A DNA stretch of 64,000 nt from an uncultured Bacteroidales bacterium (GCA_963818295.1 CAWFRW010000007.1:74938-138937); one strand, 5' to 3'; positions 37,756 through 64,000 are shown, numbered from the stretch's first letter. The notes: generated from the sequence alone by a model not told the origin. Translations and numbers: made by a program.

Positions 37756-37768
37756 GATTAATAATTTT

Positions 37769-40443: not shown

Positions 40444-40452
40444 AATAATCTA

Positions 40453-41350: not shown

Positions 41351-41384
41351 AATTTAAGGCGTATGTATGTAATTTAATGATAAC

Positions 41385-41958: not shown

Positions 41959-41993
41959 AATTAGATATTATAAGATTCTTAATTTCCGCATAT

Positions 41994-44086: not shown

Positions 44087-44103
44087 ACTATTTATCTTAG
44101 AAA

Positions 44104-45789: not shown

Positions 45790-45826
45790 GTTTCTAAAGT
45801 ATAAGATATAAAATCAGGTAAGGTGA

Positions 45827-45877
45827 GTCGGAAGTCGGAAGCAGGCTTCGGTCTTCGGCTTCGGACTTCCGTCTTCC
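45827..45877. repeat. 7-nt stuttered inverted word island inside the kdp operon
   Basis: GTCGGAA GTCGGAA GCAGG CTTCGGT CTTCGGC TTCGGAC TTCCGTC. The left and right halves are near reverse complements, so it can form a hairpin. It fills most of the 87-nt kdpF-kdpA spacer. Confidence 0.85.
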
Positions 45878-46041
45878 TAAAATTTTTCCGGATGCAATAA
45901 TGTATATATTAAATAACCCAGAATAAAGAGAGCAATTATGCCTCCGGTAATATAGCTTATGTGACTGTTGGATACGGCCTCGCCCGGATGAACAGGAACT
46001 ACCCCTAAGGGCATGAACAAAGCTGCAAATTTTGTTTTCAT
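45877..46041 (-). CDS. kdpF: K+-transporting ATPase subunit F (start uncertain; only the last ~26 codons look KdpF-like)
   Basis: Unlisted short ORF ending …ITGGIIALFILGYLIYTLLHPEKF-stop (45877-45879), a single TM with the KdpF-type tail, directly upstream of kdpA. In-frame ATGs at 46041 and 46014. Confidence 0.5.
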   Translation of the reverse strand: MKTKFAALFMPLGVVPVHPGEAVSNSHISYITGGIIALFILGYLIYTLLHPEKF

Positions 46042-46163
46042 TTTATCTTGCTTTTAAACAATCTTTAATGCAGCAAAATTGCACCGGAAGTTATAATGCT
46101 TTTATAAGAAGTAAGAGTTAAACCATAAAGATTTCATAAATATTGAAACGCCATTAATACATA

Positions 46164-46405
46164 GGGGCTGTAGAAAAAGTCTTTTTAACCGCAAAGCTTT
46201 GTCAGCCGAAGCTTCAGCGAAGGCTGGGACGCTAAGGTTTTCACAAAGTGCGCAAAGATAATACATTGATATAAAGATCTTTGCGACCTTTGCGTAATTG
46301 CCACCAGCGCAATCTGGCCCCTGCGCTAATGAATAGCCCACCGGGCTATTTCTTCACGCTTGGTCCCCTCTGCGGTTAATGGATTTTGACTTTTTCTACA
46401 GCCCC
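46164..46405. repeat. 242-nt composite structured element bounded by 18-nt perfect inverted repeats
   Basis: GGGGCTGTAGAAAAAGTC (46164-46181) and GACTTTTTCTACAGCCCC (46388-46405), extended by AACCGCA/TGCGGTT. The interior is a chain of small hairpins (GCAAAGAT…ATCTTTGC, ATTGC…GCAAT, AATAGCCC…GGGCTATT). It shares GACCTTTGC and CGGTTAATGGATTT with 53284-53308. Confidence 0.75.
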
Positions 46406-46460
46406 ACAACAATTTTACATTGCATCGTAGGGCCACAACATGGCTTTGTCGACATTTCAT

Positions 46461-48467
46461 TCAGTCAACCCTGATTGGAAAAATGACAATCGGAATACCA
46501 AATTTAAAGAATCTCTTCTGAATAGAAAAAATTGTATGATTATGCAGCAGTTTTGAAAGGTAGAATGTTTTGGAGAAAACCAGCTGTCCGCCAAAGAAAG
46601 CTGCTCCCGATAACCTGGGTCTTAGTCTTTTCACTATGCTGTAAATTTCATTCACTGGATCAGTTCCGATTGTCCAGATGCTTTTTCCGTAAAGGCCAAA
46701 CTGATTGGCGACATTAACATATTTTTCACCATCCTCCCTTACTTGTCTTTTAAAATGTTCCAGTTCCTCAGTCCCCCTGTAAATCTTGGAATTTAGAATA
46801 CCAATTCTTACAAACACAATATTGTTATAAACACCTTTAAAATTTTCGAGAATTCTAGGAAGGTGTACAATCCTGTTCCCCAAAACCGCTTACTAAAATA
46901 ATTGCAGTTTTTCCTTCCTTGTTAAATGGGACTTTTTTCAGATTCCTGTCTTCACAAGGTCGCTGACCAATTAGTTTTTCAATCTCATTAAATGCGTTTA
47001 ATCTTAGTTTCTGAAGTTTGAGAGCAGTTTTGAAATAATGACGTTTAATATTTATTGCCAGCAGGACCAGCAAACCTGTAATTACTATAGTTACCCAGCC
47101 ACCCTGTCCGAATTTCAGAATTATTACTGAGACCAGGATAAAGGAGGTAAGAATCAGACCAATGCCATTTATTGCTAGTTTTCGCTTCCATGATACTTTC
47201 TTTCCTCTCATCTCCCACCAATGTTTCACCATTCCAACCTGTGAAATAGTAAATGTTATGAACACATTAATACTATAAAGAACAACCAGCAATGCAACAG
47301 ATCCTTTTGAAAAAACCATCAGAATAAAAGCTCCTGATGCCCATTAATAAAACTCCATTCATTGTTACCAGCCGGTCGCTCAGGGAAGCAAATCTTTTAG
47401 GCAACCAGTGATCAATTGCCATATTTGCCATTATTCTCGGGCCATCAATAAATCCTGTTTGTGCAGCAACAAACAGAAAGTGCAGCTTCAGAAATCAGAG
47501 TAATGAGGACAAAACTTCTAGACCAGAAATATCCCCATCCGGCAGTCAGATTATCAAGTAATACTGCATTTAAAGTTTTATGGGTATCGAGCTGAACATT
47601 AAAAAGCATATAGCAGATCATTAATCCCAGCACCATAAATGAGAGTGAGATCACCATCAGAAACATTGTTTTACGTGCTGTTGCAACTTTAGGTTCTCGC
47701 AGAATTGGCATGCCATTACTTACAGCTTCGATTCCTGTATAGGTTCCGGCACCCATACTATATGCCCGGAGAATTATAAAGAATGTAGCAAAAAAACCAA
47801 ACTGAGATACTGTTGAATGTAATTTCACTGGAAGTCTGACTGGCAACTGCTGCAAAATTTGAGGCATGAATAAAAATTCCATATAAAATGGCAATCACAT
47901 GTGTTAGTAATAAAGACTATAAATATTGGAGTAAGAGAAAGTACTGATTCCTTTAACTCCTCTTAGATTTAAAAGAATCAGAAAACATACTCCTACAAGG
48001 GCAAAAGAAAGTTTGAAGGGTTGCCATTCAGCCGGGAAAAAACTAAATAGGGCATCAGCACCACTTGAGACTGAAAGCGTAATTGTAAGAACATAATCGA
48101 TTATAAGGGCAGAACCAGAGATCATTCCTGTAGTTGGTGATAATAGTTTACTGCCAACCAGATAACCTCCGCCTCCATGTGGAAAAAGACGTGACTATCT
48201 GGTTGTAACTTGAACTTATGATTATAATTGTAAAAACTGTGCCAAGGGCTACAAAAATAGCCAGACTTGTATGGCCCTGTAAATTTCGAAAGCCTCTTCA
48301 GGACCATAACATGATGATGAAATGCCATCCGCTCCAAGACCAATCCATGCAAAAAATGCTACAAGTGTTAATTTATGAAATAATCCTTTGTCCTGAATAG
48401 TTTTTGCTTTGCCAATAAAGGTATTTTTCAGTTTCTCATTGAACGAAGAGCTTACAGTCTGGTCCAT
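46461..48467 (-). pseudogene. APC-superfamily transporter with C-terminal cytoplasmic domain, KimA-like K+ importer candidate (at least 6 frame changes)
   Basis: Fragments 48249..48467, 47904..48125, 47445..47894, 46855..47319 and 46461..46883, plus unlisted pieces. Reconstructed stretches LFPHGGGGYLVGSKLLSPTTGMISGSALIIDYVLTITLSVSSGADA, LRAYSMGAGTYTGIEAVSNGMPILREPK and the tail LLHNHTIFSIQKRFFKFGIPIVIFPIRVD parallel B. subtilis KimA as I remember it. Confidence 0.65.
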
Positions 48468-48708
48468 CTACACTCCTTGTTTGTAGTCCCATCAACACTT
48501 TATCTTACTGCAGGCTTTTCGGTATTCCAACATGTCAGACAATTAGTTGCGCGAAAATAGGGGATACCCATAAGGAACATATAAAGAATATAAAAGAACA
48601 TATAAAGATTTTATAAAGATCTTTAAGGATCTTTTTTTCTGAATCAGACAAAGTGAACGAGTAGAAGTTACAGCTTCCCGGAATTTTATCCGTTTAATAA
48701 TGAATATT

Positions 48709-48720
48709 AATATATTTGTT
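48709..48720 (+). promoter_or_regulatory. promoter-like 12-mer AATATATTTGTT upstream of DUF47 copy C
   Basis: TATATTTG at 48711-48718, 25 nt before ATG 48744. Confidence 0.4.
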
Positions 48721-48743
48721 TATCAAACCAATAAACATCGAAT

Positions 48744-49394
48744 ATGGCGGTATTTACAAGAACAACAAAGAACCTGATCCTGAAGATTGATGAGTTCTTT
48801 GACAATATAGATCTTGGACTGCTTGTTTTCAGGGAAGGGATAAAGGCATATCTTGATAAGGATATGGAGGCATTTGAACGGCATCTTCAGAAGGTTGATT
48901 CCCTCGAGAGCAATGCTGACAAGCTTCAGCGCGCGATTGAAAATGAGATGATCACTCATTCAATACTTCCTCAGCACAGGGCGGAGGTCAGCACACTTAT
49001 AGATCAGCTTGATGAGATAATAGATGCCGTAAAAAGCACTCTGAACGAGATCAGCATCGAACTGCCCGATATCCCGGAATCACTTAACAAAAATTTTATA
49101 AGTCTAACAGAGACTTCAATAAACTCTGCAGAGGAGCTTATACCTGCAGCAAGGGCATTCTTCAGGGCCCCATATACAGTCAGGGATAAGCTGCTTAAAG
49201 TCTATTATTTTGAAACTGAAACAGATAAAATATCTTTTTCCACAAAGAAGATCATTTTTCAGGAGATGAATGAACTTGATCTGGCTCATAAGTCTCATTT
49301 GAGATATATAATTCACCACATAGAAAATATTTCCGATCTGGCACAGAAGGCTGCTGACTCTGTTGTCAGTGCGCAATGGCGATTAAAATTATGA
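48744..49394 (+). CDS. DUF47 / PhoU-like phosphate-transport regulator family protein, copy C (divergent paralogue)
   Basis: Intact 216-aa ORF of the same length and helical pattern as copy B, but much lower identity. Directly upstream of the second PiT gene. Confidence 0.75.
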   Translation: MAVFTRTTKNLILKIDEFFDNIDLGLLVFREGIKAYLDKDMEAFERHLQKVDSLESNADKLQRAIENEMITHSILPQHRAEVSTLIDQLDEIIDAVKSTLNEISIELPDIPESLNKNFISLTETSINSAEELIPAARAFFRAPYTVRDKLLKVYYFETETDKISFSTKKIIFQEMNELDLAHKSHLRYIIHHIENISDLAQKAADSVVSAQWRLKL

Positions 49395-49400
49395 TGTAAT

Positions 49401-50646
49401 ATGATTCTGTTCTTCCTGACAAGCGGTCTTTTCCTTGGCTGGTCGCTCGGGGCAAATGATGCCTCCACATGTGTTCGGTTCAGCTGTGGGTTCAAAGATG
49501 GTAACATTCAGAAAAGCGGCAATAATTGCTTCAGTATTTTTCATTCTGGGAGCCGTTCTTCAGGGTTCAGGGACATCTCATACTCTTGGTAAGCTTGGAG
49601 CCGTGAATGCACTCGGCGGATCATTCACAGTTGCACTGGCGGCTGCGATTACAATCTACATGATGACAAAGTTTGCGATGCCTATATCGACAACCCAGGC
49701 TATTGTCGGAGCAATTATCGGATGGAACTTTTTTACCGGAAACCATACAGACAGCAAGACCCTGTCTACCATTGTGATGGCATGGATGGCTGGTCCTGTA
49801 ATGGGTGCGATATTCGCAATCATCCTGTATATAATCGTAAAGATATTCAAGAAATCGATGAAGATACATCTGATACGATTTGAGTCATTTATAAAGACAG
49901 GATTAATTGTTGTCGGCGCTTTCGGCTCTTACAGTCTTGGAGCCAATAACATTGCCAATGTTATGGGAGTCTTTCTGCCTGCATTCAATCTTAATGATCT
50001 CGATCTGGGCATCTTTACGCTGAACTCAGCACAACAGCTATTCCTCCTTGGCGGAATTGCAATTGCCGCAGGAATAATTACATATTCACGGAAAGTGATG
50101 AATACCCTGGGAAACAATATTTTAGAACTCTCTGCCGAAGCTGCCCTTGTTGTTGTTCTGGCACAGGCGATTGTACTTTTTATTTTTTCATCAACCGGTC
50201 TGTCGACCTTTGTTGTCAATCACGGCCTCCCTCCTATTCCAATGGTCCCGGTTTCAAGCTCACAGGTAATTGTAGGCTGTATTATCGGGATTGGTCTTTA
50301 TAAGGGTGGCAGAAACATAAATTTCAGAATCCTTGGCGAGATCGGGCTGGGCTGGATCATATCACCTCTTTCATCAGGTTTACTTACATTTTTCATGCTG
50401 TTCTTCATGAAGAATATATTCGGTATTGATGTCGGATTTAATGCCGGTGATCCGGTTGCTGTTGCTGCCCATTTAAATAATCCGATGATGGCAGGTCAGT
50501 CAGATATATCGGATATAGTCAAATATCTCCTTCTCGGATTGTTTGTCTTTGGAGCTCTTGGACTTGCATATTATATCCTTCTTGAAAACAAAAAAAGAAG
50601 AGAGCTGCAAAAATCAGAAGCCAAATTCTGGAAGAATATGAAATGA
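49401..50646 (+). pseudogene. pit: PiT-family inorganic phosphate transporter, copy 2 (one frameshift near 49460)
   Basis: MILFFLTSGLFLGWSLGANDAS (49401..) shifts into …VFGSAVGSKMVTFRKAAIIA… (49435..50646). The second half has …YSLGANNIANVMG…. Confidence 0.8.
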
Positions 50647-50681
50647 GATCACCATCACTTCTTTCATGACCAACCCCCAAA

Positions 50682-50697
50682 TCCCCCAAATGGGGGA
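50682..50697. terminator. GC hairpin TCCCCC-AAAT-GGGGGA in a convergent spacer
   Basis: Preceded by a duplicated word CCCCCAAAT x2 (50674-50691). Between the PiT copy 2 stop and the M49 peptidase stop. The T-run is poor. Confidence 0.35.
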
Positions 50698-50816
50698 CTT
50701 TAGCCTCCTCTTTACAGTGATATATAAAAGATATCAGAGCTTCCGAATTCTTTATCTGAGTAGATATTAGCCCTCCTTCAGGGGGGTTGAGGGGTTGCCT
50801 GACAAAAAATTAGATT

Positions 50817-52906
50817 TTACTGTTTAACTCCATTCTTCCTCCGTGAAACTATTTTTACCGCTGTGGATCTCCAAAGAGTTGTATTACGTTTACAGCACAA
50901 AAATGAATAATTCTTCCCGTAATCCATCATCTGTCCGAGATAATCATCCGTATACTTAACCACTACATCCGAAATAGTCCCATTTGTATCATAAACCGGT
51001 GATAATACTGGATTTACAAAACCTGTATATGGAGCCAGATGTAGCTTTTCGTAACGATCAAGAATTTCAGCATGAAGCACCGGATCAATCTTCACTCCGT
51101 AGTCCTCAATCAGTTTTTTACCTGAGACAAAATCGCCTTCCGATTTAATCCGCTGGATCTCCATGAGTAATTCTCCGAAAAGCGTTCTGAGCCTGTCATA
51201 ATCATTTATCTTCACAGATGTCTTGCCGTCATGATTAATGAATTCAACGACATTTTCACTTTTTCCCCGGCAATAAGCCCACTGTGAAATTACCGACCTG
51301 CAGCGCATATGTGCCTCTTCAATATCTTTTCCTCGCTTTATTCTGACTATCTGTGTAAGCAAGCCATTCCTGAGGTAAGAGTCATATTCAGCCTCTGCAG
51401 CTTCACGTCCGGGCAGCAGTCCCAGTTCTGTTATCTTATTGTCCATTATGAAATATAGCGCAAACAGGTCTGCCCTTGCCTCCTCAAGCGTCGAAGCATA
51501 ATTTTTCAAGGCATTCGGATCAGTACCTTCAGCCAGTTTGCCGCTGGCGTGTCCGATACACTCATGAAGATCTGTATGAAGGGCATCAGCTATAGCGGCA
51601 TATTTTTTACTCCTTGCTACTTCATCTGCATCAGCTGCAAACTCTTCAAGGAAACCATTCCCCTGAGATGATACATCGTATGCATTTGTTATATTGGCCA
51701 GTGTAACGGATTTGGATCCGACCTCTTTTCTTATCCAGTCGGCATTGGGAAGATTTATACCCAGAGGAGATGCAGGATAACAATCTCCTCCGAGCATTGC
51801 AATATTTATTACTTTGGCAGCAACACCTGTAACTTTCTCTTTTTTGTACTTCGGCTGGATAGGTGAATTATCTTCAAACCACTGGGCATTCGAAGTTATA
51901 ATTCTTGTCCTCTTCGTCGCTTCGAGGTCTGTATAATCAACTATCGCCTCCCATGTTGCCTTCATTCCAAGCGGATCTTCATAGTTCTCAATAAACCCAT
52001 TTATATAATCTATCATGGAATCGCTGTTCTTCACCCAGGCTACATTGTATTCATCCCATTTCCTGAGATCTCCCGATTTATAATATTCAATCAGAAGACC
52101 AAGTTCATTCTTTTGGGCAAGTGTCTCAGCTACTGATGCCGCCTTTTCAAGCCATTTAACAATTACCTCAATCGCCTGACCATACTTACCATTTAAACTG
52201 TAGACCTCTTCGGTCAGCTTCTCCCTTGGCCTTTACAATTTTTGAATTCAGTCCCAGAGAAACAGGATGAGGATCCATTGGGATTGGTTTTTCCTGCATA
52301 AAACTCCTCAACCTCCTTCTGTGTAACACCTTCATAAAAGTTGGATGCCGATTCGGCAACCATATCCGCTCCCTCCCTCTGTTCAACCTTTCTGGGATAA
52401 AGCTTCTCGCTCGAATATAACCGGAGACAATTCTGATATCAGCTGATCTAGTAGACTGACCGGAAGAAAGCGGAAGTTTCACGGGATCGCTTTCCTTCAC
52501 CAGCCGGGCAAAATATTCTTCTGAAAAACCCGGCTTCAGTCTTGTCTCTCGAATAGTGGTGATGAATTCCGTTAGCAAAGAATACCCTTTTAGCATAGAT
52601 GAGAAATGAATTGTAATCGGCAGACTCCCTGTCGCCTGAATAGCTTTCAATAATCGCTTCAAGGGTCTTTCTTATTTTAAGGTTATACCTGAAGTTCTGA
52701 TCCCACAGGATATCCCGGCCTGAAAGTGCAGCCTGACTCAGATAATATAAATACTCTTTTTCATTAAGTGCAAGCGATTCAAATCCGGGAAGCTTATATT
52801 TAAGAACCCTCATATCATCGAACTGTTCAACGAAGTATACGAAATCATCTTTGATTTCAGCTGTGGGTAGTTCATTATTGCTATGAATCATGCTCAGTGT
52901 TACCAT
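50817..52906 (-). pseudogene. M49 (dipeptidyl-peptidase III) family metallopeptidase (at least 3 frame changes in the 5' third)
   Basis: HECIGHASGK (HExxGH) and EEARADL are in the intact 50817..52034 block. N-terminal fragments are 52448..52906 and 52186..52662. Confidence 0.8.
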
Positions 52907-53050
52907 AAAGAGTAAATATTTACAAGCTGCAAAATTATAAAAATTGCAATGATTATGTCTGACTGCTCTTTTTCGAAACTACCCTTTATCTGCATGCTGT
53001 TAGCTTACCCTCCGCTTTTTTTTAAGCGTTGGGCCATTATGAGGTGGGCG

Positions 53051-53133
53051 GGGGGAAGAAGTGGCGATTCGCCAATAGAAATTTCACATTTCCAAAGCCA
53101 AATCCCGGTTGGCGAAGCGCCACTTCTTCCCCC
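53051..53133. repeat. long hairpin with 16-bp perfect GC-rich arms
   Basis: GGGGGAAGAAGTGGCG (53051-53066) and CGCCACTTCTTCCCCC (53118-53133), extended by ATTCGCCAA / TTGGCGAAG. Confidence 0.85.
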
Positions 53134-53164
53134 TATTGTACCAAACTGATATTGTCATTCCGAA

Positions 53165-53214
53165 TTAATCCACAAAACTCGTTTACGCATCCTTTGTGTT
53201 ATACTGTGGATTAA
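53165..53214. repeat. hairpin TTAATCCACA … TGTGGATTAA
   Basis: 10-bp perfect arms at 53165-53174 and 53205-53214, with partly complementary flanks. Confidence 0.8.
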
Positions 53215-53249
53215 TGAGGAATCTCCCGGACCGATCACAATTCCACCTT

Positions 53250-53277
53250 CAGCCCTCAGCCTTCTGCCCTTAGCCCT
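53250..53277. repeat. 7-nt stuttered word island CAGCCCT CAGCCTT CTGCCCT TAGCCCT
   Basis: Four consecutive heptamers with one or two substitutions each. Confidence 0.8.
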
Positions 53278-53390
53278 GTTTCCCCGACCTTTGCCGGTTA
53301 ATGGATTTCATGCACAGGCAAAACAATGAATCAACCACCCCGGCCGGGAAACAACTTTTGTAAATATCAGATAATCAGTAGTCCCGGCCA

Positions 53391-53467
53391 CCCCTCCTTC
53401 AAAAAGGAGGGGAAAATGACAATATAATTGTTACAGGGGGACCCTCCCCTTATTTTTTAAGGGGAGG
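53391..53467. repeat. two GC-clamp hairpins
   Basis: CCCCTCCTTC-AAAAA-GGAGGGG (53391-53412) and CCTCCCCTT-ATTTTTT-AAGGGGAGG (53443-53467). Confidence 0.8.
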
Positions 53468-53620
53468 CAGGGAGGGGTTAAAACTCACATGGTTTGACGG
53501 CCTTGGGTTAGTTGGTATTTAATTATCTTGAACCTGATGCCGGTTTTTTTGTTTAATAATTTGATACGAAAGAGAAATTGAAGCTGAGAATTTATTAATT
53601 AACCGAAAAATCAAATCCCA

Positions 53621-54022
53621 ATGAAAAAGATGAGTCCTGTTGTACATTTTGAGTTGCCGGCAGCAGACAGAATGCGGATGGCAAAATTTTACACAAAGGT
53701 ATTCGGCTGGCAGACGGAGATGCTCGGAGAGGATATGGGCAACTATGTTACTGCTTCAACAACATCAACAGATGCAAATGGACGTCCCTCAACCCCGGGA
53801 GCAATCAACGGAGGTTTTTATCCGGTCAGCGCCGATGAACCTGCACAGTATCCATCTGTAGTAATAGCTGTTGATGACATAAAAGAGGCTGCAGCAGATG
53901 TGGCAAAATCAGGCGGCACCGTACTGGGAGAACCCGTAATGATACCGGGGGTAGGACTGTATGTTTCATTCATTGACACCGAGGGCAACAGGTTAAGTAT
54001 TCTTCAACCGTCAATGGGATGA
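53621..54022 (+). CDS. VOC (glyoxalase/bleomycin-resistance) family protein
   Basis: Intact 133-aa ORF. The VHFELPAAD…FYTKVFGW…GGFY…VDDI…GG…PGVG…F.D.EGN pattern is typical of small VOC proteins. Confidence 0.75.
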   Translation: MKKMSPVVHFELPAADRMRMAKFYTKVFGWQTEMLGEDMGNYVTASTTSTDANGRPSTPGAINGGFYPVSADEPAQYPSVVIAVDDIKEAAADVAKSGGTVLGEPVMIPGVGLYVSFIDTEGNRLSILQPSMG

Positions 54023-54141
54023 AGTCAGATAGCAGGAGAAGCTGATAATATTTAAATTATTCGCTCACAGACTCTGTTCTTCGTGTGTCAGGATTGTTTT
54101 TTTTTATAATTTTAAATCAGTCCTTAACCAGTACATCATAC

Positions 54142-55404
54142 ATGAAGAAGAGAATACCATTTTGCCATTTTACACCTCTTGTATCAATTTTATTTTTACT
54201 TTATGCCAATCCCCGGCAGACACTTGCAGCAGAGGCTGATCATAAACTAAATGTTCTTGTAATCTTTGCTCATCCTGATGAAGGAGAGATCTATGCAGGA
54301 GGAATCTCTGCCATCTATTCGAAAATGGGTCACAGTGTCAGGTTTCTCTCACTCACAAATGGTGATGCCGGCCACTGGTCGATGAATCCCGATTCACTTG
54401 CCAAACGTCGCTACAATGAAGCAATGGAAGCAAAGAAGATTCTGGGGCTGGCAGATTATGAAATTCTTGATTTTCATGATGGAAAACTGAAAAACTCACC
54501 TGAAATACAAAAAATTGTAGCCAACAGGATAGAGAAGTGGAAGAGTGATATTGTGCTTCTTTATTATCCAATTGTAACAGAACCGGGCGGACATAATGAC
54601 AATATGCAGGCGGGGCTGATCGCAAGGGATGCGGCATCACTGGTTAAAATGGAAAAGATGCCTCTTTTCCTCTACATGCGTGACTATTTCACAACCGGAT
54701 TTTCTCACATTCCGGATATCGCCTTTAACATTGAAGATGTCTGGGATATAAAACTTCTCGCGATGAAAGCCCACGAATCGCAGGTGGTTGAAGCTAATCC
54801 TCATGCCGATGGCATTCTTGATGAAGTGTTAAAGAGTGAAACGAAACGACAGGAGTATCTTTTTTACAATTCATATCCCTTCAGCAGGATCACACCTGAT
54901 ATTAAACTGGCAATTAAAAAATGGTATGGATCGGATAAAGCCGAACAGATCAGCTGGGTTGAAGCTTTTGAATTCGCAGAAATAGGAAGACAAATCAATA
55001 ATCAGGCTATTGCTGAATTATTCCCTATGCTCCCGGCTCCTTATACCTTACAAGGAAAAACAGCGTGGCTGGATACGGGGATTGATCTTGTGAGCGGACA
55101 GGGAGTAGAAATCCGGGCGGAAGGTGAGGTTGTGTGGAAGAAAGAGGGATATAACTGGTGCGGTCCGGATGGCAATTCACCATATACACGCTGGGGCAAA
55201 CGACCAGTCCTGGGTTCAGGTGTCGGCGCACTGATCGGTAGAATAGGGCAATCTTCAGAGTATACGTTTTTTATCGGCAATAATCTGTCTATGGAGGCCT
55301 GCGCAGACGGACGGCTTTTCATTGGCATCAATGATGACAACACAAGTGACAATGCAGGCTTTTTTAGTGTCTGGATCAAAAGGATTTTAATACAAAAACC
55401 ATGA
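54142..55404 (+). CDS. secreted PIG-L/LmbE-family deacetylase fused to a C-terminal lectin-like beta-sandwich (PA-IL/LecA-like)
   Basis: The track ORF starts at GTG 54085; ATG 54142 (MKKRIPF…signal) is more plausible. LVIFAHPDEGEIYAGG LmbE motif. C-terminal ~115 aa: …WLDTGIDLVSGQGVEIRAEGEVVW…IGINDDNTSDNAGFFSVWI. Confidence 0.7.
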   Translation: MKKRIPFCHFTPLVSILFLLYANPRQTLAAEADHKLNVLVIFAHPDEGEIYAGGISAIYSKMGHSVRFLSLTNGDAGHWSMNPDSLAKRRYNEAMEAKKILGLADYEILDFHDGKLKNSPEIQKIVANRIEKWKSDIVLLYYPIVTEPGGHNDNMQAGLIARDAASLVKMEKMPLFLYMRDYFTTGFSHIPDIAFNIEDVWDIKLLAMKAHESQVVEANPHADGILDEVLKSETKRQEYLFYNSYPFSRITPDIKLAIKKWYGSDKAEQISWVEAFEFAEIGRQINNQAIAELFPMLPAPYTLQGKTAWLDTGIDLVSGQGVEIRAEGEVVWKKEGYNWCGPDGNSPYTRWGKRPVLGSGVGALIGRIGQSSEYTFFIGNNLSMEACADGRLFIGINDDNTSDNAGFFSVWIKRILIQKP

Positions 55405-56567
55405 AATCATCAATAACCCGTCGCGATTTTCTCATAAAATCATCATTGCCTGCAGTCGCCTCGCTTATCTCCCCGTCAATCATCGGTAGTGTCTCAACAG
55501 GTATGCCGGATGCCCAGGAGATGAAAAGAAAATGCCGGATGAAAGTCGGATCTGATACCGACAAGCTGCCTTCCGAAGTGAAAAAACAGGGTGCTTTTGC
55601 AGTTCTTGATTATCTCCATGCTAGAGGATTTGACGGAGCTTTTTTCAGGCTTATGCTTGATCTGAGCCCGACTCTCGATCATGGTGAACTTAAGGAGGTT
55701 AAAGCTCATGCTGATTCACTCGGATTATTTCTTGAAGCAGGAATTGGATGGGTCAATCCGTATAATACACCTGAAAGACCGGAGATCCGCAGATTCGGAA
55801 ATGGAGATTACCGCCTCGCTGTCGAAAAAATGATTTCAGCAGCACGTATCATCAATTGCACTGAACTATGGGCCGTATCAGCCCACTCAATCCATGGTGA
55901 CCCGTTTTATGTAGCATACGACAGATTCAGAACAGATGTTACGTGGAACGACCAGCTTGATGCAATCGTAAAATTTATCGGCCTGCTGGCCCCGATGCTG
56001 AGAGACCTTGGTTGCAGGATTAATCTTGAAACACATGGCGACGAAACATCATTTGAAGCGATCAGAATTATTGAAAAATCGGGCAAGGATATTGTCGGCA
56101 TAACACTCGATACAGGCAACCTGCCACTGCAGGCAGATGTCCCGCTAAGTTCGATCAAAAGGATGGCTCCATATGTACATCTGACCCATTGTAAGGATGG
56201 TATCCTGTTTCGTACCGATGAAGGGCTTAACCAGCAGATCCGGAGTCTTGGCGATGGGATAACTGACTGGAAATCAGCTCTTGAAATTTTAAACGACCAT
56301 AATCCTGATCTTCATCTTTGTATCGAGGAGTACCGTGCTGAAAATCTCCTGTTCTGGTCAACTCCAAAGTACAGTAAATCATATCCCGATCTTCAGTGTA
56401 AGGATATTGCCGAATTTGACAGATTAACAGGAATATGCGATCAGAAAATCAGGGAAGGAAAAATTCCGGGAGTCGGGGAGTTCCGGAAGATTCCTTTCGG
56501 CGAACCACAAAGGGATGCCTCATATATAAAAGGGCAGCGTATCTCCGAAATGTTATTGAGACGATAA
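55401..56567 (+). CDS. Tat-signal sugar phosphate isomerase/epimerase (xylose-isomerase-like TIM barrel)
   Basis: Intact 388-aa ORF with the ITRRDFLIKSSLPAVA Tat motif and an …INLETHGDE… TIM-barrel metal-site pattern. Its ATG overlaps the upstream stop (ATGA at 55401-55404). Confidence 0.75.
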   Translation: MKSSITRRDFLIKSSLPAVASLISPSIIGSVSTGMPDAQEMKRKCRMKVGSDTDKLPSEVKKQGAFAVLDYLHARGFDGAFFRLMLDLSPTLDHGELKEVKAHADSLGLFLEAGIGWVNPYNTPERPEIRRFGNGDYRLAVEKMISAARIINCTELWAVSAHSIHGDPFYVAYDRFRTDVTWNDQLDAIVKFIGLLAPMLRDLGCRINLETHGDETSFEAIRIIEKSGKDIVGITLDTGNLPLQADVPLSSIKRMAPYVHLTHCKDGILFRTDEGLNQQIRSLGDGITDWKSALEILNDHNPDLHLCIEEYRAENLLFWSTPKYSKSYPDLQCKDIAEFDRLTGICDQKIREGKIPGVGEFRKIPFGEPQRDASYIKGQRISEMLLRR

Positions 56568-56673
56568 ATTAATTGCTAAAATGTCTTCAGTGGATTATCC
56601 GGCCAATCATAGAGATTGAGATAAATTAGGCAATAGAAATTTAGTAATTGATGTAATTTAGAGTGTGAGTGTT

Positions 56674-57381
56674 ATGAGCGAATTAATTGAAATATTAAGA
56701 CAAGAACTCTTAAGTAATGCGGATGAAAAGGTAAAAAAGTCCGGAGAAAGATTTTTTAAGGAAGAGGTCAGGCTATATGGTATAAAATCAGCCACTGTTG
56801 TAAGATTGGAAAGGAACATTACAAGCACTTAAAGGATAGAAAGCAAAGCTGAAATATTCAGTCTTTGCGAAGAATTATGGAAATCGGGAATCATGGAGGA
56901 GTCGTTTATTGCATGCAACTGGTCATATTATGTAAATAAACAGTACGAACAGTCTGACTTTGAAATCTTTAACAGATGGGTGAACAATTATGTAGGCAAC
57001 TGGGCATCATGTGACACTCTCTGCAATCATTCTGTCGGCACTCTTGTCGAAATGTATCCCATCCTTCTTGCAGAACTGAAAAAATGGGCAAAATCGAAAA
57101 ACCGCTGGGTAAAGCGTGCATCCTCAGTTTCACTTATCGTACCTGCAAGGCGCGGATTGTTTCTGGATGACATCTTTGAAATAGCTGATATTCTGCACTC
57201 TGACCAGGATGACATGGTTCAGAAAGGGTATGGCTGGATGCTTAAGGCTGCCAGCCAGGCTCATCAGGAAGAGGTCTTCCGGTATGTAATGAATAAGAAG
57301 GCAACAATGCCCAGAACATCACTCAGATATGCAATAGAAAAGATGCCGGCAGAATTAAAAGCAAGGGCTATGGCAAAATAG
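56674..57381 (+). pseudogene. DNA alkylation repair protein (HEAT-like repeat family), 1-2 frame changes near 56820-56890
   Basis: MSELIEILRQELLSNADEKVKKSGERFFKEEVRLYGIKSA… from ATG 56674. The remainder is in 56893..57381 (…NRWVKRASSVSLI…VQKGYGWMLK…). Confidence 0.7.
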
Positions 57382-57422
57382 TAGTGCCAGTTTTTTACCT
57401 TTGCATTTTAAAAAATTCCGCG

Positions 57423-59114
57423 ATGGTCAGAATATTTTCATTTATTCCTTTTAATTTTTATTCAATTCAGTCTGTTCTCTCAGGACCGGATCACCGGTCA
57501 TGATTTTGCTACAAGATCGGAAGTTATTGCCCGCAACGGGATGGCTGCTACAAGTCATCCGCTTGCAACCCAGGCTGCTCTTGATATTCTCAAAAAAGGA
57601 GGCAATGCAATAGATGCTGCAATTGCTGCCAATGCTGTACTTGGAGTTGTAGAACCAACAGGAGCCGGTATTGGCGGAGATATTTTTGCACTGATCTGGA
57701 GTGCAGATAAAGAAAAGCTATATGGATTAAATGGCAGCGGCAGATCTCCAAGATCTCTTAAAATGGAATATTTCAGGGAGAATGGCTATGATTTCATTCC
57801 TTCATACGGTCCTCTGCCGGTTTCTGTACCCGGATGTGTTGACGGCTGGTATGAGATGAATGAGATGTTCGGACGTCTTTCGATGAAAGATATTCTCCAG
57901 CCTGCAATAAATTATGCCAGGGATGGATTTCCGGTTACTGAAGTTATTGCATGGTCGCTTGCAAGGAACTGCTGAGCTCCTTAAGGACTATCCCAATATA
58001 AAAGAGGTATATATGCCCGGAGGCAAATCTCCTTCAAAGGGGGAAATATTTAAAAATCCGCTGCTTGCAAACACTCTCGAAAAAATTGTAAGAGGTGGCA
58101 GAAATGAGTTTTACAGGGGAAGTATAGCAAGGGATATTGATCTTTTCATGAAAAAACAGGGAGGTTTTCTCTCATATGAAGACCTGGCACGTCATCATTC
58201 CGAATGGGTGGAACCTGTAAGCACAACATACCGGGGCTATGAAGTCTGGGAACTGCCTCCAAACGGACAGGGAATTGCTGCCCTGCAGATGCTGAATATC
58301 CTTGAAGGATTTGATCTTGCCTCAATGGGATTCGGATCAGCTGAATATATTCATGTTTTTACCGAAGCAAAAAAACTTGCTTTTGAAGACAGGGCAAGGT
58401 ATTATGCTGATCCTGTTTTCAGTGCAACACCTGTTGCACAGCTTCTCTCAAAGAAATATGCAGCTGAAAGACGCAAACTTATCAACCCCGATAAGGCAGC
58501 AAAGATCTATGACAGTGGTAAAATAGAAGCAGGCAATACAATATATCTGACAGTTGCTGACAGGTACGGCAATATGGTATCACTTATCCAGAGCAATTAC
58601 AGAGGCATGGGATCAGGAATGTGTCCTACCGGACTGGGATTTGTTCTGCAGGACAGGGGTGAAATGTTCAGCCTCTCAGAAGGTCATAACAATATGTATG
58701 CTCCGGGCAAAAGACCTTTTCATACAATAATACCTGCCTTTATAACAAAGAACCATAAGCCCTGGATCAGCTTTGGTGTTATGGGTGGTGATATGCAGCC
58801 TCAGGGACATGTACAGATTATTGTCAACCTTATTGATTTCAAAATGAATCTTCAGGAGGCAGGTGATGCCCCGAGGATACATCATATAGGATCATCCGAA
58901 CCGACAGGCCAGCAGATGACCGATGGCGGAATCCTTCTGCTTGAAAACGGATTTCGCTGGGAGGTGATACAGAAACTTATGAGACATGGGACATAAAGTT
59001 CAATGGGATCTTGGAGGTTATGGAGGATATCAGGCAATAATGTGGGATGCCAAAAATAAAGTCTGGTTCGGAGCCTCAGAATCAAGGAAAGACGGACAGG
59101 CTGCAGGGTATTAG
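57423..59114 (+). pseudogene. ggt: gamma-glutamyltransferase (at least 3 frame changes)
   Basis: …NGMAATSHPLATQAALDILKKGGNAIDAAIA…, GNTIYLTVADRYGNMVSLIQSN (Thr nucleophile region), MGGDMQPQGH. The tail …YGGYQAIMWD…ESRKDGQAAGY-stop ends at 59114. Confidence 0.9.
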
Positions 59115-59129
59115 AAGGAGTGAAGGACT

Positions 59130-59166
59130 GAGGCGTGAGGCGTGCAGGCGTCAGTGCGTGAGGCAA
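59130..59166. repeat. 7/8-nt stuttered word island GAGGCGT GAGGCGT GCAGGCGT CAGTGCGT GAGGCAA
   Basis: Consecutive near-identical words in the convergent spacer between ggt and the NuoB-like gene. Further GAGG-containing words run to about 59195. Confidence 0.8.
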
Positions 59167-59201
59167 GAATGTGAGGGATGAGGTAGTGAGGCAAGTGTAA
59201 A

Positions 59202-59647
59202 TTATTTTATACCAAGCAAATCAACCAATCCGTTGATAAAAGTAAGCGGATGAACCGGGTTACCCGGAACATACAGATCAATATGATTCTGTTCAATGAA
59301 TTTTCTGTCAAGGGCCGGACTTCCGGCAAAGATTCCTCCGCTTATTGCATCTGTTCCTGCAAGTATTATAATTTTTGGTGAAGGTGTGGCATCATAGGTT
59401 ATCTGAAGCGGTTCAGCCATATTCCTTGATATTGGTCCTGTAATAACAATTCCGTCAGCATGGCGCGGTGAAGCAACAAATTCAATCCCATACCGTCCCA
59501 TATCAAAATTCACATTACCGCATGCATTCAGTTCAAGTTCAGTGCTGTTATCTCCACCTGCAGAAACCTGTCTCAGTTTGAGTGAACCGCTGAAATAGCT
59601 TCGTATCTCCTTTCTGATCAGATCAGGATTGAGTCTTACAGGTTCAT
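59202..59647 (-). pseudogene. NuoB/HycG-like small subunit lacking all four [4Fe-4S] cysteine ligands (start unresolved; likely ATG 59645-59647 plus a one-base shift)
   Basis: …RQVSAGGDNSTELE…RYGIEFVASPRHADGIVITGPISRNM…IIILAGTDAISGGIF…YVPGNPVHP…. The NuoB core is conserved but Cys is replaced at every ligand position. Confidence 0.75.
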
Positions 59648-59953
59648 GCTGAACCTTCTGTTAATTATCAGCCTGTTCCTCTCATTTGCAGAGAGTCTGT
59701 AATCAGTTGTAAAGCTTATTTTCTCTGGAAACAGTCTTGCACATTCACCGCAGAAGGTACACTTGCCAAGGTCAATCGTGAATGGATCGGTATTAATTGC
59801 ATCTGTCGGACAGATATCAGCAATGGCCTTTCCATCAACGCTCTCCATACTTATTTCAGGCCTTCCCCTGAATATTCCGGGAACTTTTGCCGTTGTCAGA
59901 TCAGGAATAAATTGTTTACCCTGGTGATATAATATTTTAAGTGTTCTTAACAT
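59636..59953 (-). CDS. NuoI/HycF-like ferredoxin subunit retaining ligands for only one [4Fe-4S] cluster
   Basis: Intact 105-aa ORF. Motif 1 is degenerate (SVDGKAIADICP, only the last Cys is kept). Motif 2 is CTFCGECARLFP (first three Cys kept, the fourth is Phe). Confidence 0.7.
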   Translation of the reverse strand: MLRTLKILYHQGKQFIPDLTTAKVPGIFRGRPEISMESVDGKAIADICPTDAINTDPFTIDLGKCTFCGECARLFPEKISFTTDYRLSANERNRLIINRRFSMNL

Positions 59954-59974
59954 TGCACTGATTCATTTAAATAT

Positions 59975-61481
59975 CTAAAGATCATGTCCGCAATATGACA
60001 GATTGAAACTCTTGTTGCACACCGGGAAATCTGAAATTTCATTATTCCTCACTGCAAGAGCCAGAGCAAGCCAGTTATGAAATGATGGATCCTTAACCTT
60101 ATATAATAAGCAGCTCTCCATTTTTGTCTGTTATTGCAGCATGGCAGATCTCTCCTCTCCATCCTTCGGTAAGGGATATTGCGAACATATCAGGTTCAGG
60201 CTGAATGTTTCCGTTCTGAGCTCATTCCAGGTTCAGGTATCTGTTGCAGCAATTGCCTTATATAGCCAATAGACTGTTTCACCTCTTCCTTTCTTATCTG
60301 TACTCTTGAATATACATCACCATGATGTTTCAGAACAGGAGCATGGTTAAATTCACTGTACAGGCCATATGGATGAGAACTCCGGATATCCCTGTTCAAT
60401 GCATTCATTCTGGCTGACATCCCAACTGTACCGATTGACAGCAACTGATCATAGCTTAACATTCCTGTCCTTTCAAATCTCGAGAGACAGCTTGGCATTT
60501 TTGAAAGCTCACTGTTCATTTCAATAAAGTCGGGTTCAAAATCATTCAGAACCTTTTCAAGCCTTGCAAGCCAGTTCGTTTGTAAATGGATATGGATTAT
60601 AACCAGCTCTCATCAAGCCCTTTTGCCAGACGGTTGCCGCACCATTCCTGGAAAAAATTAATAATTGGTGTTCTGAGCCTTCCGAACACTGAACTGCCAA
60701 GCTGGTATGCAACATCAGTGCATATAGCACTGAGATCACCTGTATGTATTGCAATACGCTCAATTTCCTGGGCCAGAGTCCTGTGCATAAAGAATATCCC
60801 TGCTCTGCGAAATACCGCAAAGACTCTCCCACAAATAGGCAAAAGCAGTTGTATGACCAACAGCACTGTCACCTGCAACAGATTCAGCCAGAATAGTCCG
60901 CTGAAGAAGCTTCTTCTTTTCAAGAAACAGTTGTTCAACTCCCCGGTGCTGATATCCAAGCTGAATTTCAAGGTGAAGAATCTGTTCCCCGTTACAGACA
61001 AACCTGAAATGGCCTGGTTCAATAATTCCTGCATGAACAGGCCCTACTCCCACTTCATGAAGTTCTTCACTTGCAATATTAAAAAATGGGTAATCAGGTA
61101 TTATTTTTGATTTATCTGCCCTGCTTTCAGAATATCTGACTGGTTTTAGCCAGGGATGGTCATTATATGAAATATCAAAATTTTCATGTATTTCACGTTC
61201 AAATTTTTCAAAGGCAATATTCCTGGCAGAAAAAGAATTGAGGCGAATCTCCATGCATTTACCCTTGATGATGAAACCATTATATTATGCTTGATATCAT
61301 CAGCCATACAACAGATCAGCCTGATTGCATTGCTTTCCCTGTAACCAAAATAGAGAACACAATGTCTGTAAGGACTTTCCTCAGTAAGCGTTGTATTCAG
61401 CTCAAGGAAAATGCTATAGTCCATTTCAGGTATACTGCTTACCGGAACAGACTGATGGTTTAATATTGTTTTCAAGTTCAT
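59975..61481 (-). pseudogene. fused NuoC-NuoD / HycE-like large subunit lacking the Ni-Fe cysteine ligands (at least 4 frame changes)
   Basis: NuoC-like N-terminus (FEREIHENFDISYNDHPWL); GPVHAGIIEPGHFRF; L1 position reads ESVAGDSAVGH; the C-terminus reads FPVCNKSFNLSYCGHDL-stop. Fragments 61146..61508, 60760..61254, 60597..61034 (middle part, …LAQEIERIAIHTGDL…), 60557..60832 and 60196..60519, plus an unlisted tail. Confidence 0.8.
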
Positions 61482-61482
61482 A

Positions 61483-62913
61483 TCAGACGGGTAAAATTTT
61501 AACTGCATCCTGAATTAACTGAACAAATATGGCCGGAGGATTGAGTCCAAGCCAGATAGCTGTAAACATCAGCAGATACTGAGTCAGTGATTCCCATGGG
61601 TTTATCTTTGGGATCTTTGATTCATCCAATCCGGGAACAGGCAGAAACAGGATCTTCAGGATATTCTTTCCAAAAGCCCAGATAACAATTGTAAGCAACA
61701 ATAAAACAATTGCCAGAAGGATAATATAATTTGCTTCAAAGAGTGATCTGAAAATCAGAAATTCACTCACAAACAGACCTGAAGGAGGCATTGCTGTTGC
61801 GCTTATAAAACCAAGAAGCAATACAATAGCCCCGGCAGGATTATATTTAAAATAATTCCCTACATGCTGAATGCTTTTGCTCTGAAATGTCCTGTATAAC
61901 TGGTTAAACTGAAAAAACAGGCCGGATTTTACAAAGGCATGCAAAATAATATGCAGAACAGCTGCATAATAACCAACTCCTCCGGCAGCAATTCCAAGCA
62001 TTACAATACCCATATGCTCAATACCCGAATAGGCAAACATTCTTTTTATATTCATAACCTTTGTCATATAGACAGTTGCTACAAATATTGAGAGGATAGC
62101 TGCTATAAAGATTACAAGGTTTGCCCAATGAAAAAGTGAAGTATGGGAAACAACAGCATAAAATCTGAAGATTCCGACAAAACCAAGATTCATGAGGACG
62201 CTTGCAAGCAAAGCACCTGCCGGAGCCGGTGCTTTATCCTTGGCATCGATACCGGCAGTATACATTGGGACCAAGTCCAAGTTTTGCGGTAAATCCTGTA
62301 AAGATAAAGAGGAAAGCCAGCCTGAGCCAGAATGGATTAAGCTTGTCTCTGTAATGCCATCAGGTTTGAGAAGGAGAGATCATTCGATCCGGCATGCTGG
62401 AGAGAAAGACTGAGAAAAAGTATGCCGATGAAAACAAATGTAATGCTTATTGCACAAATAAATACATATTTCCATGTTCCCTCAAGGGCAAGTTTATTCC
62501 TGTGATGATAAATAAGCATTGAGGCCGAAAGTGTTGTCATCTCGGTAAAAATCCAGATCACTGCAATATGATTGGCAAGATATGCTGCCGTAATTGAGGT
62601 TATAAGAAATACAAGCGCTGCAAAATATATGGCCCGCGACTCAGGTGTTTCATCGTGACGCATTATATACAGATAGCTGTGAAAAAGTGCCGGGATTGTA
62701 ATAATGCTCAAAGTCATAAGGAGCAGTAATCCAAGAGAATCAAATGTAAAATATTCAAGAACATGTGCTCTTATAATTGTAACATGCAAATATTGTAAAA
62801 CAGGTCTGAAGTATTCCGAAAATAACAATGAGAATATTGTTTACAACAGTGTTCCTGTTGGCAAAAATCAGTCCTGAAATTACAAATGCGCTTATAAGAT
62901 AGATCCCGGTCAT
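61483..62913 (-). pseudogene. NuoL/M/N (HyfB/F)-type antiporter-like membrane subunit (at least 2 frame changes)
   Basis: ATG 62911-62913 (MTGIYLISAFVISGL…). Fragments 62337..62828 and 61483..62280 (…FAYSGIEHMGIVMLGIA…ILHAFVKSGLF…). Confidence 0.8.
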
Positions 62914-62924
62914 TTTTTTCTTGT

Positions 62925-63557
62925 TTAATAATCTTTCAAATTGCTGAGCTGATCAACATCAACATCTTTAAATACATCACCGATTTTGTTCAGGAAGATC
63001 CCCAGTATTAAAACACTTGCAAATACATCAAGCATGATACCAAGGTTTACAAGGTTCGGCATTTCGTTCCCGACAGCAAGTGAAAGGACAAAAACACCGT
63101 TTTCAATCATCAGATAGCCCATAACATGGGTAATTATCTTTTTTCTTGAAGCGATGAAGTACAGTCCTGTGAAAAGAGTCGACAATGATACAATGAAGAA
63201 GATCTTATCGAGGTGAGTATCCTGTATTGAATTTGCAAGCAAAACTGTTACCACAACGATCATTGTAATAATTATCAGGGAGACAAAGTGTGGCAGATAG
63301 GGTTCAGTCTCCCTTGTAATTTTGTTTCTCTTTATCAGATAGCCTAAAAACATTGGGACGGCAAGTGCCCTGAATACAATTGTCTCAAGCAGGATCAGTA
63401 CAAGGTTCCAGGTCTGAATATCCTTAAGCTGAAGGAAAGTGACGCCAAAAAGAATAAATCCCTGCAGGGCAAGAACCCTTACATAAGTAATTATCCTGTT
63501 CGCAATTGAAACATATAAAAGGCTAATAATGAATATGATCAGAAGTACGTTTGTCAT
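62925..63557 (-). CDS. HyfE-like small polytopic membrane subunit
   Basis: Intact 210-aa ORF with about 7 TM helices, positioned as hyfE is in Hyf-type clusters (…GYLMIENGVFVLSLAVG…). Confidence 0.65.
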   Translation of the reverse strand: MTNVLLIIFIISLLYVSIANRIITYVRVLALQGFILFGVTFLQLKDIQTWNLVLILLETIVFRALAVPMFLGYLIKRNKITRETEPYLPHFVSLIIITMIVVVTVLLANSIQDTHLDKIFFIVSLSTLFTGLYFIASRKKIITHVMGYLMIENGVFVLSLAVGNEMPNLVNLGIMLDVFASVLILGIFLNKIGDVFKDVDVDQLSNLKDY

Positions 63558-63567
63558 TGTGAATTAT

Positions 63568-64000
63568 TTAAACAAATTTTTCCAGAACAAGCAATACACC
63601 AAGAAAGATTAAAAAGCTGACCGATGAGAGAGCCAGAATAAACTGAGGATTATGGTTCATCCTGAAGCGTGCCATGAATGATTCTATCAATCCTACAGTA
63701 ACTGCAAACAATGCCTGAATAAACAGGTAAAGTGGAATCAGCAAGGGAGAGTGACAATGATCCGATAAAAAAATCTGCAATAATTGCCCCGTACATTGCA
63801 AACTTAAGATAACCGGCTGTAAGTATAAGTCCAAGATCGAATCCGCTGTTGTCCAGAACCATTACTTCGTGAATCATTGTTAATTCAAGATGGGTTTTTG
63901 GGTCATCCAGGGGCATCCTGCTGTTCTCGATCATAGCAATCAGAACAAGTACACCTGCAGCAAGCCCTCCAAGAGTATATGTAATTGATGATCCAAGATG
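63568..64000 (-). pseudogene. NuoH/HycD/HyfC-like membrane subunit (3' part only; runs off the window; one frameshift near 63830)
   Basis: …ENSRMPLDDPKTHLELTMIHEVMVLDNSGFDLGL… (63650..63934) and the tail …FMARFRMNHNPQFILALS… (63568..63834). Confidence 0.75.

Follow-up and report, generated by a model that had tools for sequence, protein, structure and literature searches.

A fused small subunit predicted to lack N2 and to bind a single [4Fe-4S] cluster in a Hyf-type Ehr operon of an uncultured Bacteroidales bacterium

Introduction

Ehr (Ech-/energy-converting-hydrogenase-related) complexes were reportedly treated by Coppi in 2005 and by Marreiros et al. in 2013, and the Ehr complex of Geobacter sulfurreducens comprises EhrA-D, EhrL and EhrS. 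Descriptions of such complexes are available (PMC7894505, PMC3569383, PMC6349859, PMC10284858), their defining feature being a large subunit without Ni-Fe ligands (PMC3569383, PMC6349859, PMC10284858). The operon analyzed here lies in a 64,000-nucleotide stretch of DNA from an uncultured Bacteroidales bacterium (GCA_963818295.1, CAWFRW010000007.1:74938-138937), referred to as the window in the following. Like the Ehr systems, it is a group-4-hydrogenase-like operon encoding antiporter-like and NuoH-like subunits, a NuoB-like small subunit and a large subunit devoid of the N- and C-terminal CxxC Ni-Fe ligands. In contrast to Ehr as described, ferredoxin and small subunit form a single fused protein, two clusters out of three appear to be gone, and the genes, among them those of three antiporter-type subunits, follow a Hyf-like order. 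The papers covered by a full-text literature search characterize Ehr solely via its large subunit, and a loss of the cluster from the small subunit finds no mention in them; Marreiros et al. 2013 may cover it. What would be new is the fused, one-cluster, N2-less small subunit, the Ehr complexes themselves being already known.

With hydrogenase-4 and formate hydrogenlyase of E. coli, the system shares equivalents of HyfB, C, E, F, G, H and I in the same order. For the NuoB domain, HycG (7z0s) is one of the top matches in sequence as well as in fold, and for the ferredoxin domain HycF is a match. Unlike in Hyf/Hyc, a HyfA/HycB or FdhF partner, Ni-Fe ligands and the proximal cluster are missing, one ferredoxin cluster is left instead of two, H and I are fused and HypD is absent from most carriers. 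Of the features by which group 4 [NiFe]-hydrogenases (Hyf/Hyc/Mbh/Ech) are recognized, the Ni-Fe ligands of the large subunit and the proximal cluster of the small subunit are both absent here, and of the Hyp maturation machinery HypD was not found in the window's genome. MbhJ of Pyrococcus furiosus (6cfw_J) is the best sequence and fold match to the NuoB-like domain; it binds a proximal [4Fe-4S] cluster via CxxC...C...C, whereas all four of these positions are non-Cys in the window. The complex I subunit NuoB/PSST has the same fold as this domain, shares its SPRxAD and GG(I/M)F core and is likewise located where the peripheral and membrane arms meet. However, the tandem CC and the other Cys ligands are lacking and the gene content is of the Hyf type, not that of NDH-1 with tandem-Cys N2, the full set of NuoA, J and K and a separate NuoI. 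Finally, Mrp antiporters likewise possess NuoL/M/N-type subunits with the TM5 Glu and the TM7/TM12 Lys/Glu and work without redox chemistry. They differ by having MrpE/F/G, absent here, and no NuoB/NuoD/NuoI-like arm, which is present here, and are thus regarded as a functional analogue only, not as a family assignment.

Results and Discussion

Extent and start of the small-subunit gene

The small-subunit gene is spread over two open reading frames joined by a frame break:

59202..59953, minus strand: whole small-subunit gene, a fusion of an N-terminal one-cluster ferredoxin (NuoI/HycF-like) and a C-terminal NuoB/HycG-like domain
59636..59953, minus strand: ORF of the ferredoxin-like domain, with ligands for one [4Fe-4S] cluster
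59636..59668, minus strand: frame break in the linker between the two domains, with a net +2 bases versus intact orthologues
59202..59660, minus strand: ORF of the NuoB-fold domain (PF01058), an open frame translating into 152 residues with a single Cys

A protein search gave more than 8000 homologues of the small subunit, the best 120 of which, at 86-97% identity, are mostly 248-256 aa long and span both window ORFs; intact orthologues have about 249-250 aa. The N-terminus of the homologues, MLRTLKILYHQGKQ, is the start of the ferredoxin-like ORF 59636-59953, and the proteins continue uninterrupted into the NuoB-like part. In line with this, residues 1-97 of the orthologue from a Bacteroidales MAG (L005) were mapped by tblastn to 59953-59663 in frame -1 and its residues 104-249 to 59642-59205 in frame -3. 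At the linker, DNA alignment shows a 2-base gap in L005 and a further orthologue (L004) opposite the window, the extra bases being located near 59640-59665. Read in the three window frames, the linker gives LIIN, EGSA and HEPVRL, corresponding to the orthologous LIIKEGSQEPVRL, and the net +2 fits two separate single-base insertions (frames A to C to B).

As the homologues span both ORFs and the linker carries a net +2 bases, the small-subunit gene starts with the ATG at 59953, whereas that at 59645 lies within it. The initial annotation had correctly pointed out that no canonical start follows the upstream stop in the NuoB-like frame, where the first start codon is a GTG at 59513. Its proposal that the ATG at 59645-59647 becomes usable after a one-base correction has to be abandoned, since this codon lies inside a fusion of about 250 aa, the orthologue DNA reveals two extra bases and the NuoB-like frame is not a separate gene.

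The frame break is not peculiar to this gene. Compared with intact orthologues, 24 distinct frame switches were counted in about 16 kb of coding sequence (window 48744-64000 plus the adjoining L006, G000:C7:138000-150000), that is, about one per 650 bp coding. Of these, 19 are +1 and 5 are +2, none of the 24 requires a deletion, and the operon and unrelated neighbours (GGT, M49, PHO4) are hit alike. Real decay is expected to mix insertions and deletions. Because the errors are one-directional and found in every gene, the split of the small-subunit gene is an insertion-type assembly artefact and not decay. The assembly comprises 4.4 Mb in 33 contigs and is 67% complete, as would be expected if many marker genes were frame-shifted. 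Consequently, whenever a "pseudogene", "split gene" or "missing start" is encountered in this genome, an artefact should be suspected first.

Missing N2 ligands in the NuoB-like domain

The frame 59202-59660 matches PF01058 (Oxidored_q6) with 67 bits versus a cut-off of 27, covering profile positions 5-127 of 128, whereas the NuoB models of NCBIfam score at most 76 bits on this domain against cut-offs of 116-312. Best matches among solved structures (phmmer) are MbhJ 6cfw_J (E = 2.4e-20) and E. coli HycG 7z0s_G. At residue level, "aggDnsTelel" stands opposite "sgsCngCdiei" of MbhJ and "CggCngCeiei" of HycG, and in the alignments to these two proteins "gtDaisgg" is found opposite "gaCptgg" and "vpgNpvhp" opposite "vpgCpprp". 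Hence, the four [4Fe-4S] ligand positions in the window are Asp, Thr, Asp and Asn, assigned by alignment to the sequences of solved structures as follows:

59573-59532, minus strand: RQVSAGGDNSTELE, motif of ligands 1 and 2
59552-59550, minus strand: GAT, Asp at ligand 1 of the former CxxC
59543-59541, minus strand: ACT, Thr at ligand 2 of the former CxxC
59357-59328, minus strand: GTDAISGGIF, motif of ligand 3
59351-59349, minus strand: GAT, Asp at ligand 3 (GxCxxxGG)
59270-59247, minus strand: VPGNPVHP, motif of ligand 4
59261-59259, minus strand: AAC, Asn at ligand 4 (PGCPP)

At none of the four aligned positions does the NuoB-like domain have a Cys ligand for the proximal/N2 cluster. All four ligand-equivalent codons are two substitutions away from any Cys codon, so that indel-type assembly errors cannot hide a Cys. 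An alternative four-Cys set within the NuoB domain was also considered and is ruled out, the single Cys there being non-conserved.

The initial annotation had described a NuoB-fold subunit without ligands for the proximal/N2 cluster and hence with the terminal electron-transfer site gone, locating the motifs to within 8 bases of the positions given above. This description is borne out by PF01058 and by the profile alignment to NuoB/HycG-type proteins it had proposed, with D/T/D/N at the Cys positions of MbhJ and HycG; likewise, the structural core it regarded as kept is present in the MbhJ/HycG alignment as SPRHAD.(I/V)ITGP.

An AlphaFold2 model of an orthologue (P0018; 86 sequences) reached a mean pLDDT of 85.7 and a pTM of 0.86, the only weak stretch being residues 131-150 (pLDDT 54-58), which correspond to the former CxxC loop and the next helix. 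Searching the PDB with this model (Foldseek) gave HycG, MbhJ 6cfw_J (TM 0.81, rmsd 1.7 Å, 126 columns) and many PSST/NuoB chains. According to the model, the NuoB fold is predicted to be kept, with a cluster-binding loop deprived of its anchor.

One cluster site left in the ferredoxin domain

In the ferredoxin domain, the Cys-Pro of motif 1 (ICPT, 59815-59804, minus strand) and the CxxCxxC of motif 2 (CTFCGEC, 59761-59741, minus strand) are kept. The other four ferredoxin Cys are lost, with Phe or Tyr at the fourth position of motif 2. The four remaining Cys are invariant in 119 of 119 close homologues and 79 of 79 species loci. In the usual wiring of 2x[4Fe-4S] ferredoxins, Cys-Pro and CxxCxxC together form the complete ligand set of one cluster. 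Following the ligand scheme of Thermus Nqo9, we take the retained cluster to be the equivalent of N6b, in the middle of the N6a-N6b-N2 wire. As judged from the sequence, the small subunit would thus have ligands for one N6b-like cluster only, the distal ferredoxin cluster being lost too.

A lineage trait and not decay of one copy

Among the 120 closest homologues, ligand 1 is Asp in all, ligand 2 is Cys in 57, Thr in 55, Ser in 7 and Asn in 1, ligand 3 is Asp in 119 and Glu in 1, and ligand 4 is Asn throughout. A similar picture emerges from 79 species-representative loci, with Asp at ligand 1 (79), Cys (73), Asn (3), Ser (2) or Ala (1) at ligand 2, Asp at ligand 3 (79) and Asn (78) or Asp (1) at ligand 4. 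These loci stem from Bacteroidales, Rikenellaceae, Prolixibacteraceae, Lentimicrobiaceae, Paludibacter, Chitinophagaceae, Saprospiraceae, Cyclobacteriaceae and Flavobacteriaceae and include the cultured Chryseolinea serpens DSM 24574 (L068). Accordingly, substitution of all four ligands, as stated in the initial annotation, holds for the window's sub-lineage with its Thr at ligand 2 and not for the wider clade, where ligand 2 is still mostly Cys among the species loci and in nearly half of the closest homologues. From these alignments, three ligands have been lost across the whole clade and the fourth in the window's sub-lineage. Looking for the same substitutions in related genomes had been suggested as a check, and as they are shared by the same-clade homologues, they represent a lineage trait and not decay of the window copy.

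The dN/dS of the window copy versus seven orthologues is 0.03-0.06 for the unbroken NuoB domain, with dS of at least 1 and thus near saturation, and the copy is under strong purifying selection. Nearly every gene of the operon being out of frame in the window, one might think of a decaying pseudogene operon in which Cys losses and frameshifts are both signs of decay. Yet this reading appears very improbable in view of the low dN/dS, of substitutions common to all intact orthologues, of unrelated neighbour genes broken at an equal rate and of 24 out of 24 frame switches fitting +1 insertions, a technical signature. That sequencing errors have masked real Cys codons can practically be dismissed: the assembly is indeed error-rich, but its errors are insertions, not substitutions, each codon is two substitutions from Cys, the neighbouring residues are in frame and identical residues are present in hundreds of independent assemblies.

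In the same genome, two canonical NuoB genes with an intact tandem-Cys N2 motif were found (L001, G000:C15:86380-86712; L002, G000:C24:151659-151982). As both have all Cys, the ordinary complex I type enzymes of this genome are unaffected. The two genes also suggest that two complex-I-type operons exist besides the Ehr operon.

Operon structure and the other subunits

The operon is self-contained and consists of seven genes in the order two HyfB/NuoL-like subunits (about 675 aa each), NuoH/HyfC-like, HyfE-like and HyfF-like subunits, a NuoCD/HycE-like large subunit and, as last gene, the Fd-NuoB fusion. The same order was found in every locus long enough. Upstream of the small-subunit gene, the window contains:

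59975..61514, minus strand: NuoC/NuoD-HycE-like large subunit without Ni-Fe ligands, six frame switches in the window
61483..62913, minus strand: HyfF-like antiporter-type subunit, three frame switches in the window
62925..63557, minus strand: HyfE-like membrane subunit, intact, 96% identity to the L005 orthologue
63568..64000, minus strand: NuoH/HyfC-like subunit, 3' part, one frame switch

The two NuoL/HyfB-like subunits of about 675 aa lie beyond the window end, in the upstream extension of the operon. The HyfE-like subunit scores 76 bits with NF008556, below the cut-off of 136 bits. That the gene under study encodes the NuoB-like C-terminal domain of a fused small subunit in a Hyf-type Ehr operon is, taken as a statement on identity alone, highly probable.

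In orthologues, the large subunit has 499 aa. The window's version shows ESVAGDSAVGH in place of RxCGxCxxxH; in comparison with HycE and HyfG, orthologues have SIAGD(S/T)xIGH opposite RVCGICGFAH and DLSY(C/A)GHD opposite DPCYSCTDR. With both Ni-Fe ligand motifs replaced, the large subunit has no Ni-Fe site. A search for HypD (PF01924) gave no hit in the genome of the window (67% complete), nor in three of four complete genomes of N2-less carriers. Besides, the motifs ESIAGD[ST]xIGH and DLSY[CA]GHD are kept across three-, two- and one-cluster Ehr (L005:8482-9981 and the large subunits of L089-L106), and the His and Asp in the replaced Ni-Fe motifs might point to a site for another metal or for a substrate.

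For the antiporter-type subunits, 42-68 orthologues were aligned with NuoL/M/N and HyfB/D/F of E. coli. The TM5 Glu and TM7 Lys are invariant, as is the Lys equivalent to K342 of NuoL in all three antiporter-type subunits. In TM8, the Lys is retained except in the HyfF-like subunit, which shares an Asn with HyfF of E. coli. Two of the subunits have an invariant Glu in TM12; for the first HyfB-like one, this Glu is present in 37 orthologues and replaced by Lys in 5. In the HyfF-like orthologues, TM5 Glu, TM7 Lys and TM12 Glu are present in 68 of 68.

Distribution and order of cluster loss

A relative of the gene is present in at least 548 species-representative genomes. Examination of 98 loci resulted in 83 N2-less ones and at least 14 relatives keeping N2. 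Of 401 Bacteroidota species genomes, sampled evenly, 19 contain the fused Fd-NuoB Ehr, representing 16 of 180 genera; the distribution of the operon across the phylum is patchy. Cluster counts were compared in the 18 of these 19 genomes other than the window's own. All eight ferredoxin Cys and all four N2 Cys, hence three clusters, are encoded in 12 of them; a one-cluster ferredoxin is combined with N2 in 2 (two clusters) and is found N2-less in 4. Common to all 18 are the same operon and a Ni-Fe-less large subunit. As N2 and both ferredoxin clusters are still encoded in sister Ehr operons, the losses are most simply explained if Ni-Fe went first, the distal cluster second and N2 last. In the three-cluster sisters (L093-L103 and L105, from G329, G249, G004, G193, G325, G333, G105, G121, G161, G015, G020 and G109), the first ferredoxin motif is oddly spaced (CxxxCxxCxxxCP), and the large subunits are already Ni-Fe-less.

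From all public data, the 150 nearest representatives at 50% identity were taken for a maximum-likelihood tree, in which the N2-less forms are scattered over at least three positions. A tree constrained to unite them in a single clade is worse by 185 log-likelihood units (AU p = 1e-6, an optimistic value as the N2-less group was named after a first tree had been seen). N2 has therefore been lost at least three times in the fused family. Separate N2-less clades repeatedly show Asp at ligand 1 and Asp or Glu at ligand 3 (DxDN, DxDS/D, ExED/TDES). In a diverged fusion clade (P0150, P0165, P0166, P0205, P0214, P0222, P0230, P0238), the four ferredoxin Cys are invariant, the SPRHAD core motif is lost and the NuoB domain is degenerate and without an acidic triad. 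This clade rules out that the Asp/Asp/Asn triad is universal in N2-less forms; the triad is clade-specific and no general rule.

Proposed function and competing explanations

Without a Ni-Fe site and N2, an electron wire into the former active-site/quinone pocket would be missing, and the complex would be neither a hydrogenase nor a quinone reductase, because electrons could not reach that pocket. Instead, it may act as an Mrp-like secondary transporter of H+ or Na+, in which the peripheral arm serves for assembly or gating and the single retained cluster has a structural role or is a redox sensor. Given the missing wire and the presence of all key Glu/Lys in the three antiporter-like subunits, ion movement would be the most probable activity. 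Taken jointly, identity and mechanism, that is, a fused one-cluster, N2-less Ehr small subunit in a complex translocating ions without an electron wire, form the reading favoured here on balance. The mechanism on its own, secondary H+/Na+ transport by a complex that retains its peripheral arm for assembly or gating, is more tentative and falls somewhat short of an even chance.

Counter to pure transport, the retained [4Fe-4S] site is perfectly conserved, which speaks for a remaining role in redox chemistry or sensing, and the strict conservation of Asp/Asp/Asn, SIAGD[ST]xIGH and DLSY[CA]GHD could mean that the pocket is not dead but has become a site for a metal or substrate. The complex might still be a redox enzyme, in which the ferredoxin-domain cluster takes electrons from a soluble donor and passes them on within a remodelled pocket to drive ion pumping, an acceptor or non-Fe-S metal being bound at the Asp/Cys/Asp/Asn site or at the large-subunit motifs GD[ST]xxGH and GHD. 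In line with this, none of the clades examined deviates from the four Cys of the remaining cluster, including those with a degenerate NuoB domain, Asp/Asp/Asn is invariant in the window's clade, and the replacement motifs of the large subunit are conserved with and without N2. However, judging from complex I structures, the N6b position is too far from the former active site for physiological electron transfer once N2 is missing, ligand 2 varies freely (C, T, S, N or A), acidic residues are missing from the ligand positions of a related clade, and a conserved partner oxidoreductase gene was not found near the operon in related loci, all of which makes a redox enzyme unlikely. Slightly less likely still is an antiporter gated by redox state or oxygen, in which an existing gradient drives transport and the lone [4Fe-4S] cluster serves as on/off sensor. 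One cluster kept without a wire, intact antiporter residues and carriers that are both anaerobic (Bacteroidales, Paludibacter) and aerobic (Chitinophagaceae, Saprospiraceae, Chryseolinea) would agree with gating, but this idea is purely inferential, a regulator or sensor-type motif was not found, and a structural role of the cluster explains the same facts.

A further speculation, improbable to about the same degree as gating, is that the fixed carboxylates at the N2 site either imitate the cluster by their negative charge or serve to bind a cation, thereby turning a redox pump into an electron-free machine. The carboxylates would be more than filler because independent lineages converged on Asp at ligand 1 and Asp or Glu at ligand 3. 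If true, the swap of carboxylates for a cluster would be a natural experiment on how coupling in complex-I-type machines is triggered.

Returning to ion translocation without an electron wire, the favoured reading, the ion-translocating arm would have stayed under strong selection while Ni-Fe, the distal cluster and N2 were removed, with the sister operons as intermediate stages. These would provide a comparative series for the role of the peripheral arm without electron flow and for a membrane arm running alone, and with Chryseolinea serpens DSM 24574 a cultured carrier makes the question open to test. Genes of this kind are routinely annotated as "Ni,Fe-hydrogenase III small subunit" or "NADH:ubiquinone oxidoreductase", and hydrogen metabolism or respiration inferred from N2-less genes would be wrong.

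Genomic surroundings of the operon

A conserved flanking partner gene was not found, the commonest flanking family occurring at 6 of 85 loci, in close relatives only. After the seven operon genes, the window's genome and intact relatives share genes for GGT, alkylation repair, an M49 peptidase, PHO4 and PhoU. The 5' leaders of the operons are short and located behind Bacteroidota-type TAnnTTTG promoters; when seven loci, including the window's upstream region, were searched for riboswitches, the crcB/fluoride type among them, Rfam gave no match except a tmRNA. Ion-homeostasis genes, namely those for PhoU and the PHO4 phosphate transporter and kdpFABC, are located near the operon both in the window (37072-50643) and in its closest relatives. 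This neighbourhood is probably coincidental, as it is absent outside close relatives. In a Draconibacterium sp. MAG (L079:10917-15836), a second, more divergent Ehr-type operon with antiporter-like, NuoH-like, HyfE-like and HyfF-like genes directly follows downstream of the first one, and at 45-70% identity looks like a tandem duplicate.
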